Positions 491 to 7,586 of a stretch of DNA of 35,065 nt are shown here, one piece after another. Under the pieces are notes generated by a model, which was not told the origin of the DNA, searched no databases, and worked only from the letters and a program-made list of their open reading frames with translations. Every line of letters begins with the position of its first letter. Positions within the stretch are counted from its first letter, which is position 1. The stretch lies in the NCBI GenBank assembly GCA_014859755.1, contig JACUTO010000001.1, forward strand, positions 1 through 35,065, written 5' to 3'. A program made the translations under genes and the position numbers. This stretch comes from Candidatus Bathyarchaeota archaeon. Its GTDB lineage: Archaea; Thermoproteota; Bathyarchaeia; Bathyarchaeales; Bathyarchaeaceae.

Positions 491-876
491 ATTATCCTCA
501 CGCACTCAATCTTGTGAAGTGTGAAGGTCATGGTCTAAGAGAATCTCTTATGAAGTTTCTATAATCGTATTAAGTTCCCTAGCATGAAGCCCTAAAGCCT
601 TTATCATGTGTTTATCTATTTCACAACATAGTTTTTCCATGAGTTTATCCATAAACTAAGGTTTATTGTCTAGACTATGTTTCGTAAAAGGGGCTGAATC
701 CCAAGTGTCAAATTTCACAGTAGTTTTAGGCAAATCGTAAATGCATGCATGCAATCGTTTTGCGAAGATAGCTGTGTGTATCTGTGTTTTGGGTCGTCTT
801 CGTTTGTAGATGGTTATGGCAACTGTAAGCACAGTAAGTATAAGTAGTATTGATGTTCATGTGAGAAACTCTGTTG

Positions 877-1938
877 TTATTCGGTTTTCCCGGTTGTTTT
901 CTTGACCTTTGTGAAATAGACCAGAAGGGCTACTCCGCCTATTGCTATTATCGCTGTTGCGGCTACAACCCATGTAGTTGGGCAAGGCTCGGTAGTTGGT
1001 ATCGGTGGGGGTTCTTCATCAGGGAATTCTGGAATCACGACGTGGTCCATAAGTGGATAGCGGTCTTGATTGTTTTCATCGATGACGTATGGTGTGTCCC
1101 ATATGCCTGAACCATCCAGTTCCTTAGCATTTGGGTATCTATCCTCATAGTCGCTCCAGTAGTTACCGCCTGAAGGATAACCATCATCCCAAATGTTCAC
1201 TGAGATAGCCGAAAAAGGCTCCTCCCAATGAACATCGTTAACCTGTTTCGTGTTATGGATGAAGCTATTATGGTAAATAATGTTGTTTTGAGACCCAGCG
1301 AAGGGAACATGCCCACTGACGTAGATGCCTTCCTCGTTTTTTGCTATATAGTTTCCAATAATTTTGTTTGAAGACCCGAAGAAGTGGATGCCAACATCGT
1401 TGTTTATTATGTTGTTTCCAGAAATATTGTTATAGTGTGAGCCTTGCTCGAACGCGCTTACACTTCCTCCGAGCGCGACGCCACGTTTATTTGCTGTTAT
1501 GTTATTTCCGGAAATGGTGTTATTTGAAGCTAGCCAAAACCATATTCCAAGAAAGTTGTTTGTTATGTAGTTTCCAGAGATAATGTTGTTTGAAGAACCA
1601 TTGAGGAAGATACCCTCTCTGAATCCTTCGATTTCCATATTCCTAATAAACACATTGCTCCTACTCGTCAGGCTTATTCCTTTTCCGTTTCCTGTGCCTT
1701 GTAGGGTGTAGCCTGCCCCATCAACCACAATGTTATCCCTCTCCACAACAATAGAATCGTTGATGTTGCCTGTGAAGGTGTAGACGTTTCCTTCACGCTG
1801 AATCTTATCCGTTCCCTCAACACTTCCATCAGCCCTAATGTAAATTGTCTCCTCTGCTACGACTGGACTTTTGAACCTCATAACCATTGCTGTTGAAAAG
1901 AGCACAAATACAAAGGTTAACAAAACAATCTTCTTCAT
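877..1938 (-). CDS. Secreted, membrane-anchored right-handed beta-helix (PbH1/NosD-like) surface protein, copy A
   Basis: 353-aa ORF. It has a signal peptide (MKKIVLLTFVFVLFSTAMV) and many NNxIxGNxIxxN beta-helix turns. The conserved tail GGNYWSDYEDRYPN...GIWDTPY...DRYPL is typical of NosD-like archaeal proteins. The C-terminus is a TM helix plus basic tail (GVALLVYFTKVKK). It is a paralog of 5105-6268. Confidence 0.85.
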   Translation of the reverse strand: MKKIVLLTFVFVLFSTAMVMRFKSPVVAEETIYIRADGSVEGTDKIQREGNVYTFTGNINDSIVVERDNIVVDGAGYTLQGTGNGKGISLTSRSNVFIRNMEIEGFREGIFLNGSSNNIISGNYITNNFLGIWFWLASNNTISGNNITANKRGVALGGSVSAFEQGSHYNNISGNNIINNDVGIHFFGSSNKIIGNYIAKNEEGIYVSGHVPFAGSQNNIIYHNSFIHNTKQVNDVHWEEPFSAISVNIWDDGYPSGGNYWSDYEDRYPNAKELDGSGIWDTPYVIDENNQDRYPLMDHVVIPEFPDEEPPPIPTTEPCPTTWVVAATAIIAIGGVALLVYFTKVKKTTGKTE

Positions 1939-2015
1939 ATTTAATCACTATATTACTATGGTATTTCCTATTTACATATTATTCTGCTTGCACTCTGCTT
2001 CTAATTTTTTGGGAG

Positions 2016-2040
2016 ACCTTAAAAACAGAAAAAAGAGGTG
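2016..2040 (-). terminator. Oligo-T tract on the minus strand downstream of the 869-aa gene
   Basis: The minus strand reads CCTCTTTTTTCTGTTTTTAAGG about 40 nt after the stop at 2081. Archaeal termination commonly occurs at oligo-T runs. Confidence 0.4.
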
Positions 2041-2080
2041 CTTTTTGTCGGTGCTACTCGATCTATGGTCTCACATTTCC

Positions 2081-4612
2081 TTACCAATAGACCTCGCCAA
2101 AGTTTATTGCGACTATTAGTGCGTCATCGATGTCGACGATACCGTCACAGTTTAGGTCTGCAATTGAGGTCCACTCGGGGTCCCCTCGAATAGATCCGAA
2201 AACGCCGCTGACGATGATAGCATCATCAATGTCAACTATGCCATCGCCATTCACGTCTCCTGGACAGTGTTTCAATTCGAAAACCGCTGTGACCGTCCAG
2301 TCTTTCCAGAAGTACCAGTATGCTGGGTTCAAATAGTATTTAGTATAGCCATATGTGTAGTATTTGAAAAAGGATCTGTTTCCAGTAGAGCCGGGTTCCC
2401 AGAAGTCATTCACAAAGACCGTATGATATCCCCCGGTTATATCAATGGTTGAGCCAGTGTTTGCAAGGTTATGCATTATGTCGATGTAAACGTCTCTATT
2501 GACGAAATAATTGCCATACTGGTCCGCAGCGAGAACCTTGAAGCTGTACTGGTTTAAATGTATGTCTCCATTTCCATAGACACGCATCTTACCCCAATCC
2601 CACTTCGCAGGTGGTCCACCAGGGAAATTACCGGGCCACCACGTCTCAAATCCTTGGTAAAGTGGACAATAAATGAAAGAACATCCAAACCAGTATAATG
2701 AAGCCAGATTTAGAGCATCTTTTATCGAATAGCTAAGGCTCAAAGCGTAATAATAGAACTTAAGGATGAAGTCTTTGGCCAATACTGTGTAATACCGAAA
2801 ACTTCGGTAAGCCAGAGCGGGAGACGCATTTTCAAAGCCTATGAAACAATAAAGACCGCTGTCAGGACTGCTGTAACCATTAGAGCTTAAGCTATTAGTG
2901 TGAGTCCAAGCGTATGGCATTCCCACCGCTCTTCCGTTACCGTCCACGTACCCTATTAAGTCTCCCTGACGACATGTCCAAATGAACACAAAGAAGTGTT
3001 TGCCTAAACCAGTTTTAGGATAAATTTCATAGTCCCAGATAGTATTGCCGTTGCTGTCAAAATAGTCGTAATGTAAATATCCACCGACGTCGAGGAAACC
3101 CCCATGCCCAAAATGGAATATTGCCACACGATGGAACCCTTGCTCCTTGCTGGAGGCCCAACTTAACACGTTGCTTTTTATTGTACCTGTGTCATAAGCA
3201 TTAGTGACCTCGTATCCTTCCTGACCAAAGCGAGACGCCATGTCGGTGCAGATCTGCTGAGCTGCTGTTCTTTCATAATCAAGCTGATAATAGGTAGAGG
3301 CGTAAGTTATGGCACTTCCACCTGGTTCAGGAAGAGGCTCTGCGTTAGCTGTTGGTATTGGTATTGAGACTATAGTAAGCGGAATCAGAAGAAGAACGCT
3401 CCGCCAAGTTTCAAACATTGATTTTGGCACGTTATCAAGCCTTGAGGTCTTTTTCCTTCTAAAATAGACTGTAGTTGCCCCGAGTGCTATGGCAATTAAG
3501 ATTGGAAGCGCTACCCACGTGATTAGTGTCTGGTTTGGAGCTACTTCACCAACAGAAACTTCATTAGATGGCGGCTTAACGGAGTTTTCACTGTTCACAG
3601 GGGCTTCAGGAGATGATGGAGCACCTCCAAATATCATTGCCCCGATATAACTAACTTCTTTTATGTCTGCCCAGATTCCGACATTTATTCCGGTAACACC
3701 GCCTGGGTAAACTTTGTCTAAGCCTAGTGGGATATACCATTCAGGATACAGTGTTAAGGGATCTCCGCCACGTGCATCCTTTTCCTCCATTGCGTTGAGG
3801 AAACATAACGTTGGTTTGCCTACCTCCACTATATTAAACTCCGTTACTTCTATAGTGTCGTTGCCCATGCACACTTTCCACGAGTAGTTTTTGGCCGCGT
3901 TCATCGCGATTTCTATGGCTTCGTTCTCATCGACGTTTATGTCAGTGCCATCAATTTTATAGAGCCACCAACGGTCAATAAAGTGTTTCAAGAACCCCTT
4001 TTCAAAACCCAAGGATACGCGCTTAGAGCTGGCTTGAACGCCGTTAAATGTGAATGTCCATATGAACTCTGTATGTATTTGGTTAACAATCACTTCAAGC
4101 GTCATATTTCCTGATGTTTTTGTGATGTTTTTGTTGATGTCAATTTTGTCCACCATGCTGCGCATTTCTTGGATATATAAAGCTCCAGAATAGGCATAAT
4201 ATCTGCTGAGAAAGCCCTCAGCCATTTCAAGCACGCTAGTGACTGGTTGAGTCATGGGTGGCGAACCATCGCAATCACTTACATATATCAGCTGTAAAGT
4301 CTTGTTTACAAATGTACAAGCCACCCTTAGCATGCTTTCATTAGACTCAAGAGTGTAGTCCACAATATCTTGGGGAAGAATACCCAAGTACAAATCTTGG
4401 GGGTATTCTTTTGTTTCAGCCGCATACTCTGTTAGGTCGAGACCAACCACGTCGTTTAAGATTGCTAACCCCTTCTCCTGAGTGGATATTTCTGCCGCGT
4501 GCACACTCGGTATTAGGAATGCGTAAGCGCTATAACTCAACAGTATAACAAGGAAAACCGTTATGAACAGAAGCTTTCGTCTAAATTGGTTAGCCATTTC
4601 CATTACCTCCAT
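2081..4612 (-). CDS. Multidomain surface protein: signal peptide, X domain with a PepSY-like segment, TM hairpin, caspase/legumain-like His-Cys domain, beta-rich region, dockerin
   Basis: The ORF is open to 4690, but a GGAGGT Shine-Dalgarno-like site precedes the ATGs at 4603/4597, and the hydrophobic signal (FITVFLVILLSYSAYAFLIPSVHA/AE) follows them. Residues about 66-355 are homologous to ORF 6459-7586. A TM anchor (LITWVALPILIAIALGATTVYFRRKK) is followed by a second signal-like segment (MFETWRSVLLLIPLTIVSIPIPTANA). The motifs VAIFHFGHGG and FFVFIWTCRQG lie 44 residues apart. The C-terminus holds two DxNxDGxVDIDD dockerin repeats. Confidence 0.85.
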   Translation of the reverse strand: MEVMEMANQFRRKLLFITVFLVILLSYSAYAFLIPSVHAAEISTQEKGLAILNDVVGLDLTEYAAETKEYPQDLYLGILPQDIVDYTLESNESMLRVACTFVNKTLQLIYVSDCDGSPPMTQPVTSVLEMAEGFLSRYYAYSGALYIQEMRSMVDKIDINKNITKTSGNMTLEVIVNQIHTEFIWTFTFNGVQASSKRVSLGFEKGFLKHFIDRWWLYKIDGTDINVDENEAIEIAMNAAKNYSWKVCMGNDTIEVTEFNIVEVGKPTLCFLNAMEEKDARGGDPLTLYPEWYIPLGLDKVYPGGVTGINVGIWADIKEVSYIGAMIFGGAPSSPEAPVNSENSVKPPSNEVSVGEVAPNQTLITWVALPILIAIALGATTVYFRRKKTSRLDNVPKSMFETWRSVLLLIPLTIVSIPIPTANAEPLPEPGGSAITYASTYYQLDYERTAAQQICTDMASRFGQEGYEVTNAYDTGTIKSNVLSWASSKEQGFHRVAIFHFGHGGFLDVGGYLHYDYFDSNGNTIWDYEIYPKTGLGKHFFVFIWTCRQGDLIGYVDGNGRAVGMPYAWTHTNSLSSNGYSSPDSGLYCFIGFENASPALAYRSFRYYTVLAKDFILKFYYYALSLSYSIKDALNLASLYWFGCSFIYCPLYQGFETWWPGNFPGGPPAKWDWGKMRVYGNGDIHLNQYSFKVLAADQYGNYFVNRDVYIDIMHNLANTGSTIDITGGYHTVFVNDFWEPGSTGNRSFFKYYTYGYTKYYLNPAYWYFWKDWTVTAVFELKHCPGDVNGDGIVDIDDAIIVSGVFGSIRGDPEWTSIADLNCDGIVDIDDALIVAINFGEVYW

Positions 4613-5104
4613 TTTTTGGTGGAAATCTCTGTCTTTTCTACTGTTCTTTTTCTGGAATCTAAGCCGACTCCCGTCCGCTCCCCTTTCCATGAGGCGTGAG
4701 GCTTAATTCCCCACGCTTTCCCATGCTAGGCGGTGAAACGCCTCCGAAGGAATCACCCTCGGCTTTAATCTCATTTTTTATGTTTTCATGGAAATTGTTA
4801 ATAAAATTTACTGAATGTTTTCAAGATAGACTATGCATCTACAATCGCGACAAATTTGCATTTATTATTCAAGTCAGTACATAAGTTGATGGGACATTCG
4901 TGTATCTCTTGCTTGAGCAAATACATGCAGAGGAGAAGAAAACGTTTCATTTATGCAACCAAGGTATAGTAGAGATATCTCCCGCAAACTCTCCTTTTTT
5001 GTTTTTGAAGGATCCACGAATCGGTTTGCGAAGGCAGCGGTGTGTCATGGCAACCGCAATCACCTTGAGCATAAGTAAAGGTGATGCCCATGGGGAAACT
5101 CTTG

Positions 5105-6268
5105 TTATTCGATTCTCCTGATTTTTCTGAAATAGACCAGAAGGGCTACTCCAACTGCCACTATTATCGCTATGGCAATTACAATCCATGTTGTTGGGAA
5201 AGGCTCTGAATGTTGAGCTATTCTGAAATAGACTATTTCAGAGGCTCCAGTGTACCCGAATGCATCGTTTGCATAAACTCTTAGGATGTGAGAACCGTCA
5301 GATAATCCAGTTAGGGTTGTGTTTCCAGCAATTGTCACAGTGGCTTGGCCGTCCAAGCTGTAACCGATCCATGAAGTTGGTTTATTCACGGTAAAAGTTA
5401 AGGAAACATTGTTTCCAGTGTACGTCTTGTTTTCTGGCGAAACAACGAAAATAGTAGGTGGCGTAGTGTCTGGAAACTCTGGAATTACGACGGGACTCAT
5501 AAGGGGATAGCGGTCTTGATTGTTGGCGTCGATTATGTATGGTGTGTCCCATATGCCTGAATCATCCAGTTCTGTAGCGTTTGGGTATCTATCTTCATAG
5601 TCGCTCCAGTAGTTGCCGCCAGAAGGATAACCATCATCCAAAATATTTGCCGAGGAAGGAAGCCAAGGATTGGACCAACATATATCTTCAACCTGTTTCG
5701 TGTTATTAATGAAGTTATTATGGTAAATAAGGTCATGCGAACCGTGGAATAAGATACCAATTTCGTTGTTTGCTATGTAATTTCCAGTAATGTTGTTTGA
5801 AACCCCAGCCGTCCAAATGCCACTATCAGTGTTCGCCGTTATGTTGTTTCGGGTAATAGTGTTGTTTGAAGAGGGCACGAGGTAGATGCCATCCATGAAA
5901 CTCCGTATTTCCATGTTCTTGATCGTTACGTTGCTTCTGCCTGACAGGTCTATTCCCCGAGAAATATAAGCTGCTGTTCCCAGAAGGGTGAAGCCTGCAC
6001 CATCAATCACAATATTGTCCCTATCAACTTCTATGCCATAATCACCATAATCAATACTAATTTTGCCCGTGAAGACGTAGACGTTTCCGTCACGGTGAAT
6101 CTTATCCGTTCCCTCGACACTTCCGTCAGCCCTGATGTGAATACTTCCACTTGCTTCTACCATGTTGATTTTTGGAAAAGAAACTATCAAGGAACAAAGT
6201 ATCAAGAGCGGAACAAATCTTGATACCAATCTTTTTGTGTTGGATACAACCAACGTTTTACCCAACAT
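5105..6268 (-). CDS. Secreted, membrane-anchored NosD-like beta-helix surface protein with an extra Ig-like domain, copy B
   Basis: The ORF is open to 6406. I prefer the ATG at 6268 because MLGKTLVVSNTKRLVSRFVPLLILCSLIVSF forms a signal peptide and the mature N-terminus (IHIRADGSVEGTDKI) aligns with copy A. It has beta-helix repeats and the same GGNYWSDYEDRYPN...DRYPLM tail. An Ig-like insert spans 5219-5467 (TIFVVSPENKTYTGNNVSLTFTV...SHILRVYANDAFG). The C-terminal anchor is GVALLVYFRKIRR. Confidence 0.8.
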   Translation of the reverse strand: MLGKTLVVSNTKRLVSRFVPLLILCSLIVSFPKINMVEASGSIHIRADGSVEGTDKIHRDGNVYVFTGKISIDYGDYGIEVDRDNIVIDGAGFTLLGTAAYISRGIDLSGRSNVTIKNMEIRSFMDGIYLVPSSNNTITRNNITANTDSGIWTAGVSNNITGNYIANNEIGILFHGSHDLIYHNNFINNTKQVEDICWSNPWLPSSANILDDGYPSGGNYWSDYEDRYPNATELDDSGIWDTPYIIDANNQDRYPLMSPVVIPEFPDTTPPTIFVVSPENKTYTGNNVSLTFTVNKPTSWIGYSLDGQATVTIAGNTTLTGLSDGSHILRVYANDAFGYTGASEIVYFRIAQHSEPFPTTWIVIAIAIIVAVGVALLVYFRKIRRIE

Positions 6269-6425
6269 AATTATTAGCTCTGTACAAAAAAAGATTTGTT
6301 CCTTGATTAGACTAATCCAGAAACTAAGGTCAAAATCCTTTATCCTGAAAATGAACCACCAGAGATCACTAGATAAAAGGATTAGTAGAGATTTTGGATG
6401 AGACATCAGTCTTAATCACAAACTA

Positions 6426-6440
6426 TAAAAAAGGAGGGGT
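6426..6440 (-). terminator. Oligo-T tract on the minus strand just after the stop of ORF 6459-7586
   Basis: The minus strand reads CCCCTCCTTTTTTAT about 20 nt after the stop codon. The same T-rich stretch could also serve as a TATA element for the downstream gene. Confidence 0.4.
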
Positions 6441-6458
6441 GTTGGTGTTCAATGGTTG

Positions 6459-7586
6459 TTAATCTTTTCTTCTTCTATATAACGCTACACCACGTATTAT
6501 GGCTAACACAATTGGAACTGCTATCAAGAGCGGTGTTGGGTCCAGACCTGTTTTGCCAGTAGAGCCACCAAGTGGAGTTTCATTGGGTGGCACTGTTGGG
6601 GTCCCTCCATCAGGGGGGCCTGCAAGGCCACCAGTCGCCGTGACAGAAACAACTTCTCCCGTGTCCGCCCACATTCTAACTTTGATGCCGTTCCACCCAT
6701 AGTAAAGCGTATCGAAATACAATTGAATGTCCCAGAGGGGATATAACGTGTCAGGTTCTCTGGGTTGTGTGCTGAATTCTACTTCTACTGGTTCGTCTAC
6801 TATGTTAAATTCTACTTCTATCCACTCGTTCTGCCAAATCTTTAATGTATAATTTTGTGCGTGTTCCCTTGCAGTGCGTATGGCTTCTTCTTCAGAGACA
6901 TTAACATCTGTGCTGCCTATCTTGTAGAGGTCCCAATCGTCCCTAAATGAATTAAAAGCTCCATTTAGAAAACTGAAGTGTATCCTGTTCCTATCAAAGT
7001 CAATGCCGTTGACCGTGTATATCCAATCGATGTATGTATAGGTTTCACCTGATATTTTAAGCTTCACGTTGCCCGACGTTGTTGTCATGGGTTTTGGTTC
7101 AGTAACCGTGTCCAACATGCCCTTCACTTCATGGATATATGAAGCTCCGGAATAGGTTTGGTATCTGTCAAGAAGACCCCTAGCGTCATCAAGACTGTTT
7201 GTGGAGGGTTGAGCAAAAAGCGGTGAACCCTCAAGCAGGTATAGCTTACAGTAAACCAGAGCATTGTTTCTAAATCTACAGGTCACATCTAATTTGCTTC
7301 CAGCAGATTCGAGGGCGTATTTCACTCTCTCCTCAGTAAGGCCGTCCAAATCAGAGGGAAAATCCATGTGGCTTACCAGTTTTGCGTTATATTTTGTCAC
7401 GTCCAGTTTGACTACGTCTGTTAAGAATGTCAGCGTCTTCTCTGGAGCAGATAACTCTGTCGAGTATGCTTGATTGGGTGCGCCATACACTAAAGATCCA
7501 GGTATTGGAGCAGTCACCATTAGAAGACACACTAAAATCGTAGAGAACAAATGCTCCCGAGCGCATATTTTCCTCAGAATTTTCAT
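6459..7586 (-). CDS. Secreted, membrane-anchored 'X' protein with a PepSY-like C-terminal segment, paralog of the N-terminal half of 2081-4612
   Basis: 375 aa with a signal peptide (LFSTILVCLLMVTAPIPGSLVYGA). It is colinear with residues 66-355 of the 869-aa ORF (e.g. EKTLTFLTDVVKLDVTKY vs EKGLAILNDVVGLDLTEY; DRYQTYSGASYIHE vs SRYYAYSGALYIQE; LYKIGSTDVNVSEEEAI vs LYKIDGTDINVDENEAI). A Pro/Thr/Gly linker is followed by a TM helix and RRRKD. Confidence 0.8.
   Translation of the reverse strand: MKILRKICAREHLFSTILVCLLMVTAPIPGSLVYGAPNQAYSTELSAPEKTLTFLTDVVKLDVTKYNAKLVSHMDFPSDLDGLTEERVKYALESAGSKLDVTCRFRNNALVYCKLYLLEGSPLFAQPSTNSLDDARGLLDRYQTYSGASYIHEVKGMLDTVTEPKPMTTTSGNVKLKISGETYTYIDWIYTVNGIDFDRNRIHFSFLNGAFNSFRDDWDLYKIGSTDVNVSEEEAIRTAREHAQNYTLKIWQNEWIEVEFNIVDEPVEVEFSTQPREPDTLYPLWDIQLYFDTLYYGWNGIKVRMWADTGEVVSVTATGGLAGPPDGGTPTVPPNETPLGGSTGKTGLDPTPLLIAVPIVLAIIRGVALYRRRKD

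Follow-up and report, generated by a model that had tools for sequence, protein, structure and literature searches.

A putative surface gene cluster of Bathyarchaeia: a membrane-anchored protein family of predicted PepSY-like fold and its caspase-fold, beta-helix and Kelch neighbours

Results

Layout of the locus

The window analysed here, 35,065 nucleotides (nt) long, is a contig of a Candidatus Bathyarchaeota metagenome-assembled genome (MAG). Positions 877-7586 of its minus strand had been read in a first-pass annotation as a surface module of two genes that occurs twice, each time a PepSY-like protein, named X, followed by a NosD-like beta-helix protein. All four open reading frames (ORFs) are present, in the order X2, beta-helix B, X1 fusion and beta-helix A (Table 1). 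Following these proteins through related loci, we found that X is a large family whose commonest neighbour is not a beta-helix protein but a protein, here called C, that is predicted to adopt the caspase fold, and that the two pairs of the window, although paralogous, appear to have split long ago. It is less the duplication than the family of X, together with the caspase-fold partner, that makes the locus interesting.

Table 1. Coordinates of the genes, domains and other features discussed in the text. TM, transmembrane; HTH, helix-turn-helix; aa, amino acids; AF2, AlphaFold2.
Feature	Position	Strand	Basis or remark
X2, stand-alone X protein, 375 aa	6459-7586	-	ORF, family alignment, AF2 model
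Beta-helix B, 387 aa	5105-6268	-	Pfam NosD 2.2e-21; ORF runs to 6406, true start supported by the ortholog in L039
X1, X-C fusion	2081-4612	-	4612 is the likely start; ORF extends to 4690
X1, X domain	~3611-4498	-	
X1, hairpin (TM helix, basic loop, second TM)	~3341-3544	-	
X1, predicted caspase-fold domain C	~2552-3319	-	
X1, predicted catalytic His codon (His105 of C, motif FGHGG)	3104-3106	-	Secondary structure of the model
X1, predicted catalytic Cys codon (Cys149 of C, motif IWTCRQG)	2972-2974	-	Secondary structure of the model
X1, beta-sandwich	~2264-2549	-	
X1, type I dockerin	2111-2263	-	
Beta-helix A, 353 aa	877-1938	-	Pfam NosD 1.3e-26
T6 tract, candidate archaeal terminator	6427-6432	-	27-32 nt past the X2 stop
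T6 and T5 tracts, candidate terminator	2021-2034	-	47-60 nt past the X1 stop
Probable gene-conversion tract between A and B	1019-1283 (A); partner 5469-5733 (B)	-	82% DNA identity over 267 nt
Decayed PEF-CTERM-like remnant, EFP.W-ASPLLMLKVIAVAMTHRCLRKP, out of frame 3' of the B stop	5022-5102	-	Three-frame translation
Fossil PEF-CTERM-like tail, TEFLT*TSILLILTVLTVAITIYKRRRPK, out of frame 3' of the A stop	788-871	-	Three-frame translation
HTH-TM-X genes in related loci (examples)	L051 3519-4844; L053 1241-2563; L055 3994-5316; L083 1674-2963; L078 7560-8867		
HTH-TM-X proteins	P0070, P0096, P0111-P0116		

The X family and its predicted fold

X2 and the N-terminal half of X1 share 37% identity over 388 aligned positions (E 5e-56), the alignment covering the first 413 residues of the X1 ORF, and A and B share 50% identity over 325 positions (E 7e-92), with their C-terminal anchors aligning separately. 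The claim that the same gene pair is present twice therefore stands in the sense that both pairs are paralogous, and the similarity of X1 to X2 is significant. A full profile search collected 1,643 cluster representatives of the X family at 50% identity (E<=1e-3), while a word-indexed search returned 210 homologs, annotated only as hypothetical. For the search of X loci we used an alignment of 12 sequences, as the one of 24 sequences had no sufficiently conserved stretch; the genome loci with X came from Bathyarchaeia MAGs in 27 of 27 cases.

The family alignment reveals one design, in which the signal peptide is followed by ~290 residues of ectodomain, then by a linker rich in Pro and Thr, and finally by a TM helix with a basic tail. 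Of the stand-alone X proteins, 72 of 80 have this helix at the C-terminus. In X2, the signal peptide has the conserved A-Y-S|x-E site, the PepSY-like domains span approximately residues 44-320, and the Pro/Thr-rich linker leads to the TM helix and an RRRKD tail. A common design of this kind had been proposed for all four window proteins; it holds for A, B and X2 but not for X1, where the TM helix and its RRKK tail are internal. The public annotation of X2 (IBX38_00020, P0001; 353 aa) has its start 22 codons into the ORF of 375 aa, and this start would cut most of the signal peptide, which the homologs conserve.

The AF2 model of X2 (pLDDT 83.7) shows three successive helix-plus-sheet modules. 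When the model was searched with Foldseek, the best match was the C-terminal domain of YpeB (5boi, E 2.8e-6, probability 1.0), and propeptides of the M4 and M36 peptidases were matched too (3nqz_A, 9e-5, and 4k90_B, 9e-4, both with probability 1.0, and 3nqy_A). The X ectodomain is predicted on this model to consist of three PepSY-like domains, so the description in the first-pass annotation is borne out as a fold, though without a sequence match. X2 has no match in NCBIfam, nor in Pfam even at E<=10, neither X2 nor X1 matches PepSY (PF03413) at E<=0.1, and one of 24 X family members has a weak match to DUF4901 (0.014). Because there is no sequence-level match to PepSY, 'PepSY-like' is used here as a statement on fold and not on family membership.

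The X ectodomain is also found behind an ArsR-type HTH domain (PF12840, PF01022, DUF7347) and a TM helix. This HTH-TM-X architecture occurs in at least 14 protein clusters and in 17 locus representatives, without adjacent same-strand partners, and several of the genes (L051, L053, L055, L078, L083) are divergent from X-Kelch-beta-helix operons or from a beta-helix gene. These proteins are candidate one-component transmembrane regulators.

The X1 fusion and the caspase-fold domain C

X1 begins with a signal peptide and has its internal TM helix and RRKK tail at ORF residues ~383-415. Between the RRKK tail and the C domain lies a second hydrophobic segment, signal-peptide-like, that would complete a membrane hairpin. 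A hairpin in this place is found in nearly all X-C fusions and would leave both X and C outside the cell. At the C-terminal end of X1, the dockerin profile PF00404 scores 25.8-26.8 bits, above its cut-off of 22.9, and the translation shows the two Ca-binding repeats of a dockerin, DVNGDGIVDIDD and DLNCDGIVDIDD.

We considered that X1 could be an artefact of a lost stop codon and rejected this, because the same architecture of X, hairpin and C recurs in at least 30 clusters: the first protein sets contained at least 17, and a further 13 were found when the top 150 representatives of the family were inspected. The X-C fusion is an old and widespread architecture and not a local gain, as had been supposed when the His-Cys domain and the dockerin of X1 were both taken for gains; the dockerin is the only addition that looks recent. 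In locus L110 (1-2657), an X protein 65% identical to X1 but without C is followed by an A-type beta-helix gene with a 4-nt overlap. L118 (4505-9043) is otherwise like it but has the full X-C fusion, and the contrast reflects either a natural deletion variant or an assembly difference. In L031, L032 and L033, genes for a ParB-like protein, an acetyltransferase and a large terminase lie ~5 kb downstream of the X-C fusion, past the X-C/Kelch unit, and may mark a provirus or mobile element next to that unit.

The AF2 model of the C domain (pLDDT 80.7) gave 52 matches in the PDB at E<=1e-3, with caspase-9, GSU0716 of Geobacter, CED-3, metacaspase-9 and CHAT at the top. In the model, a strand at residues 95-103 is followed by G-H105-G, and a strand at residues 141-147 by T-C149. 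Among 91 C domains, the predicted catalytic His is conserved at 77 of 87 and the predicted catalytic Cys at 88 of 88 ungapped positions. C is thereby predicted to be a caspase-fold, clan CD-like His/Cys peptidase-like protein, and we infer that it may act as a peptidase. At the sequence level, none of the Pfam peptidase families, C14, C11, C13, C25 and CHAT included, was matched by 17 members at E<=10, and a profile search of PDB sequences with C found nothing. Stand-alone C proteins have a signal peptide, and none of 38 has a C-terminal TM helix. C is often extended by PKD, PEGA, PPC or dockerin domains. In P0153 and P0158, two homologs of C, Asn stands where the catalytic His is predicted (FIYANGAN), and the Cys is kept; these may be pseudo-peptidases.

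Gene neighbourhoods of X

Neighbourhoods were compared in 118 related loci, whose ORFs were labelled by iterated hidden Markov models, with one representative per 90%-identity X cluster; on a sample, the labels of neighbour genes were confirmed by Pfam. Directly upstream of stand-alone X, 36 of 56 assessable loci carry C, at a distance of about -30 to +26 nt. In 16 of 50 stand-alone X loci, the gene directly downstream is one for a beta-helix or Kelch protein, and such a gene lies downstream of 4 of 5 X-C fusions. Where both sides of stand-alone X could be assessed, 22 of 41 loci have C only, 7 have C plus a beta-helix or Kelch gene, and 3 have a beta-helix or Kelch gene only. C is always upstream of X, and the beta-helix or Kelch gene is mostly immediately downstream on the same strand. 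The commonest partner of X is C, not the beta-helix protein.

The downstream slot is nevertheless far from random. Within 450 nt past X, beta-helix and Kelch genes start at a density of 0.65 per kb, compared with 0.01 per kb at 4-8 kb, a positional enrichment of roughly 50-fold, and in ~10 non-redundant loci X and the downstream beta-helix or Kelch gene share a 4-nt start/stop overlap, which suggests translational coupling. In the genome-only neighbourhoods (27 loci, 5 adjacent cases) the link between X and beta-helix genes was marginal, and adding 80 metagenome loci reversed that result. The expectation that a NosD-like gene follows X in other genomes therefore holds in part: the placement is non-random, but it is not general. 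The same can be said of the conserved pairing of X with a beta-helix protein, which is seen in the orthologous pairs of L118 and L039 and in fusions, but the slot also holds Kelch genes. A Kelch gene is downstream, for example, of the closest full-length X2 relative with a complete downstream gene (L037, 80% identical).

Fusions join X to each of these partner classes. L061 encodes an X-BNR-NosD fusion; a homolog search with it as query was dominated by the BNR-like middle domain and gave six further X fusions, of which P0191 and P0201 are NosD-X and P0188, P0190, P0193 and P0195 are BNR-X. Single proteins made of a Kelch propeller and a NosD beta-helix are encoded in L043 (1676-3241), L045 (1273-3114) and L046 (2748-4571), in each case directly downstream of X with a 4-nt overlap, and the beta-helix part of B is 86% identical to those of L045 and L046.

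Age of the two pairs

Each of the two pairs has its own relatives elsewhere. In L039, the X protein is 84% identical to X2 and the adjacent beta-helix protein is 80% identical to B and 53% to A. In L118, the X-C fusion is 66% identical to X1 and the adjacent beta-helix protein is 61% identical to A and 47% to B. More widely, the X domain of X1 shares 47-66% identity with members of the X-C fusion clade, and X2 shares 57-84% with stand-alone X proteins. All four window genes thus have closer orthologs elsewhere, and the locus does not qualify as a recent segmental duplication. In L118, moreover, the X1/A-type pair stands alone, with no second pair within 4.5 kb on either side. Flank synteny was absent between the window and the loci with orthologous pairs, so a shared ancestral tandem arrangement could not be shown. 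Across 17 pairs, the identity of X and that of the adjacent beta-helix protein are weakly correlated (Mantel r 0.26, p 0.007).

At the DNA level, the likeness between A and B is partial, with 82% identity over 267 nt, 70% over 307 nt and 72% over 178 nt, the last including ~60 nt past the stops; between X1 and X2 the likeness is limited to a single stretch of 114 nt at 73%, and the intergenic DNA shows none. These comparisons indicate that the two pairs are paralogous with an old split and did not arise by a recent tandem duplication in place. X2-B and X1-A are two old, independently conserved units.

Beta-helix proteins A and B and their tails

A and B pass the Pfam cut-offs for NosD and Beta_helix and match the NCBIfam para_beta_helix repeat, while for TIGR04247 (N2O reductase NosD) they score 62 and 40.6 bits, respectively, against a cut-off of 300. 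B consists of a signal peptide, a NosD-type parallel beta-helix, a VIPEFPD motif, an immunoglobulin-like (Ig-like) beta-sandwich (~5204-5446) and a TM anchor ending in LLVYFRKIRRIE. A has a signal peptide, a NosD-type beta-helix with more coils than that of B, the VIPEFPD motif, a short Pro-rich linker in place of an Ig-like domain, and a TM anchor ending in LLVYFTKVKK. The Ig-like domain had been read as a gain in B. Because the ortholog of A in L118 carries an Ig-like domain, it was most likely lost from A and not gained by B.

Over the tract at 1019-1283, which falls in the final third of the beta-helix domain, A is like B and L046 and unlike its ortholog in L118. As A is nearer to B than to its own ortholog there, we read the tract as the trace of a probable gene conversion between A and B in this genome.

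Most of the beta-helix and Kelch proteins encoded next to X have IPEFPSW, followed by a TM helix and basic residues, at the C-terminal end, and in 21 of 35 beta-helix and 11 of 18 Kelch partners PEF is found among the final 60 residues. These tails are similar to PEF-CTERM signals. With TIGR03024 (PEF-CTERM), the neighbouring proteins and some X proteins score 11.6-17.4 bits, below the cut-off of 23, and we did not adopt PEF-CTERM membership on such sub-threshold scores. In A and B, the PEF motif is kept but separated from the TM helix now in use, and a decayed copy of a complete PEF-type tail (EF..W, TM helix and KRRR) lies past each stop codon (Table 1); an intact tail for comparison with the fossil of A, IPEFPSWTLMLVVLTVLTIVVAIYRRK, is found in a neighbouring gene of L028. 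Because of these decayed tails, the anchors in use (PTTW...LLVYFxKxxK) have the appearance of a cassette that went in at the PEF motif and replaced the original tail. The Kelch gene of L037 has the same kind of anchor and a similar remnant after position 2703. An ORF at 4947-5189 (80 aa) was rejected as a gene, being the reading frame of the decayed tail remnant after B.

Transcription signals and other genes of the window

The oligo-T tracts that had been noted after X2 and X1 were found (Table 1), where a tract was defined as a run of at least five T on the coding strand. The gaps between X and the beta-helix gene in the window are 142-190 nt. There is no such tract between the B stop and the X1 start, and the first tract past the A stop lies ~440 nt downstream, at 435-439. 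The remaining window genes are housekeeping genes for purine biosynthesis, LonB, FTR, SAM synthetase and the like; they include none of the nos gene cluster (nosZ, nosF, nosY, nosL), and the window showed no archaeosortase gene.

About 400 nt downstream of A, at 357-492 of the minus strand, five copies of AGGTGTGACA lie within 136 nt, four exact and one with a single mismatch, accompanied by repeated AATGTTGTTTTT and one inverted GTGTCACAC. With up to one mismatch, AGGTGTGACA has 7 matches in the whole window versus 1.6 expected, and none of 100 shuffles reached 7. The cluster may be an array of putative protein-binding sites.

Discussion

Here, we have described the gene neighbourhood of a protein family of predicted PepSY-like fold that was found in the genomes of Bathyarchaeia, and showed that its members are encoded beside, or fused with, exported enzymes or binding proteins, namely the caspase-fold C, NosD-type beta-helices and Kelch or BNR propellers. 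We argue that X would be a membrane-anchored ectoprotein that binds the product of its neighbouring or fused gene at the outer face of the membrane, and that the bound X could serve as a partner-specific chaperone, inhibitor and tether. In X1, C would be joined to X through the two-helix membrane hairpin with both domains outside the cell, and the terminal dockerin could plug into a cohesin scaffold. That this region is a Bathyarchaeia-specific surface gene cluster in which X is the anchored chaperone, inhibitor and tether of the co-encoded proteins is a proposal to which we give an even chance; the physical binding and the chaperone or inhibitor role are what we infer from the folds, the topology signals, the gene order and the fusions. 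A broader form of the proposal, in which the X family are trans-acting pro-domains that fold, silence and tether exported enzymes, chiefly caspase-fold peptidases, and the HTH-TM-X proteins control the operons, is conceivable but doubtful.

The proposal draws on YpeB-SleB of Bacillus, the best structural match to X. The three PepSY domains of YpeB embrace the co-encoded SleB in trans, stabilising and inhibiting it. Like X, YpeB has three tandem PepSY-type domains on a membrane anchor; as in the C-X gene pair, the operon order is the exported enzyme and then the PepSY protein; and the partner of the PepSY protein is an enzyme other than a metallopeptidase, in that case a cortex-lytic one. The anchor of YpeB is N-terminal, whereas that of X is a C-terminal TM helix after a signal peptide. 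X further differs from YpeB in being archaeal, in its caspase-fold, beta-helix and Kelch partners and in its fused and HTH-linked forms, and the two have no detectable sequence similarity.

A second comparison is with the FTP/PepSY propeptides of the M4 (thermolysin/vibriolysin) and M36 (fungalysin) peptidases, which resemble X in fold and in their association with peptidases. Whereas these propeptides form the N-terminal part of a zinc metallopeptidase and are cut off in cis, X is encoded by a separate gene, or lies N-terminal to the peptidase across a membrane hairpin, and its partner is a Cys/His caspase-fold protein. Such propeptides are described as both chaperone and inhibitor (Yeats et al. 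2004 and Gao et al. 2010, as cited in PMC6393860). An unrelated archaeal family with a double PepSY has been predicted to inhibit proteases that are still to be identified (PMC6393860).

Lipase-specific foldases (Lif) show how a membrane-anchored private chaperone can be encoded beside one exported enzyme and co-evolve with it. Their fold is unrelated to that of X, and the likeness is one of analogy only. C itself resembles the clan CD peptidases in its predicted caspase fold and in having His-Gly and Cys each right after a hydrophobic beta-strand. It differs from them in that its sequence matches none of the described families, in its PepSY-like partner and in its dockerin, PKD, PEGA and PPC extensions. 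Exported peptidases of the gingipain and clostripain types are reportedly discussed for sediment archaea including Bathyarchaeota, and C is likewise exported. A and B, for their part, are TM-anchored surface proteins with generic parallel beta-helix repeats of the NosD/CASH type and not orthologs of NosD. A literature search found no paper on the X family or on a link between PepSY and the caspase fold in Bathyarchaeia.

Several observations weigh against the helper role proposed for X. The assignment of the PepSY-like fold depends on one AF2 model, with template-modelling scores of 0.28 (query) and 0.41 (target), and a PepSY sequence match was found in none of 24 X family members even at E<=10. 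Neither partner is present at 9 of the 41 fully assessable stand-alone X loci. The co-variation of X with the beta-helix protein is weak, and while the beta-helix of L045 is 86% identical to B, the X proteins of the two loci are 50% identical; beta-helices so alike next to X proteins so different, in L045 and L046 compared with the window, indicate that partners have been exchanged. The beta-helix and Kelch partners mostly have TM anchors of their own (30 of 35 and 17 of 18, respectively) and for that reason need no tether. In the window, T tracts and gaps part X from the beta-helix gene and X2 has no C partner, so that coupling here is looser than in many related loci. Finally, the HTH-TM-X forms suggest sensing rather than a chaperone role. 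C, which has no anchor, is the partner that best fits the helper model, and because of their own anchors the case is weaker for beta-helix and Kelch proteins.

It could be argued that there is no specific partnership at all, that genes for exported envelope proteins merely cluster, through shared regulation or in a recombining island of surface genes, and that X is a surface or stalk protein. The partners do vary among C, beta-helix, Kelch, BNR and none; the Ig-like and anchor cassettes are common to unrelated ectodomains, and the conversion tract points to frequent recombination; and the T tracts and gaps of the window suggest separate transcripts. Plain clustering, however, would not account for the strict positions, with C always upstream and the beta-helix or Kelch gene mostly directly downstream on the same strand, nor for the 4-nt overlaps with the translational coupling that they suggest, the recurrent fusions of X with each partner class and the conservation of orthologous pairs. 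We consider this explanation unlikely.

The explanation given in the first-pass annotation was a tandem duplication in place of an obligate module of X and a NosD-like protein, followed by domain gain in B and X1. The order X, beta-helix, X, beta-helix and the paralogy of both pairs are what it predicts, the A-type and B-type beta-helices are fairly close within the sampled diversity, and A and B share the unusual replaced anchor and the fossil tail past the stop. Against it, X1 and X2 are less similar to each other than either is to its own clade, and the X1/A-type pair is found alone between unrelated flanks in L118. The Ig-like domain of the A ortholog and the spread of the X-C fusion run counter to the proposed gains, no more than about a third of loci have the beta-helix partner, whose place Kelch can take, and outside the beta-helix genes there is almost no DNA similarity between the units. 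We regard a duplication of this kind as distinctly improbable, and the annotation was wrong on the age of the duplication and on the main partner of X, and probably on the direction of domain change.

Alternatively, X could be mainly an extracellular sensor or ligand-binding domain that signals to the ArsR-type domain in HTH-TM-X proteins, with stand-alone X as co-sensor or decoy and the neighbouring enzymes as output. The recurrence of the HTH-TM-X architecture, and the divergent placement of several such genes beside X-Kelch-beta-helix operons or beta-helix genes, would be in keeping with this. Stand-alone X, however, has a short basic cytoplasmic tail only and no output domain, and the X-enzyme fusions and the anchor-less C are better explained by binding or tethering; as the main role of the family, sensing seems to us quite improbable.

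C might also be imagined as a sorting or processing peptidase, sortase-like and comparable to PorU or legumain, that docks on X at the membrane and cuts the PEF-like signals at the C-termini of the beta-helix and Kelch proteins encoded nearby. Most of these proteins do have such tails, and clan CD includes transpeptidases. We hold this to be very improbable indeed, since C is found at 29 of 41 fully assessable loci, 22 of these 29 without a beta-helix or Kelch gene next to X, its PKD, PEGA, PPC and dockerin extensions are typical of degradative exoenzymes, and PEF-CTERM signals are attributed to archaeosortase C (PMC5244752).

We return to X as a helper of co-encoded exported proteins. The locus leads to a large unannotated protein family (~1,640 clusters at 50% identity) and to a secreted family of predicted caspase-fold peptidases, C, that is recognised by no sequence library, and a recurrent rule of gene order and fusion links X and C to each other and both to beta-helix and Kelch surface proteins. 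In anoxic sediments, few archaea are as abundant as Bathyarchaeia, for which detrital protein and polymers are thought to be part of the diet, and to our knowledge none has been characterised biochemically at the cell surface. If X is indeed a partner-specific chaperone, inhibitor or tether, it would explain how these archaea keep their extracellular enzymes attached and controlled, and it would extend the principle of YpeB and of peptidase pro-domains from bacteria to archaea and to cysteine peptidases.

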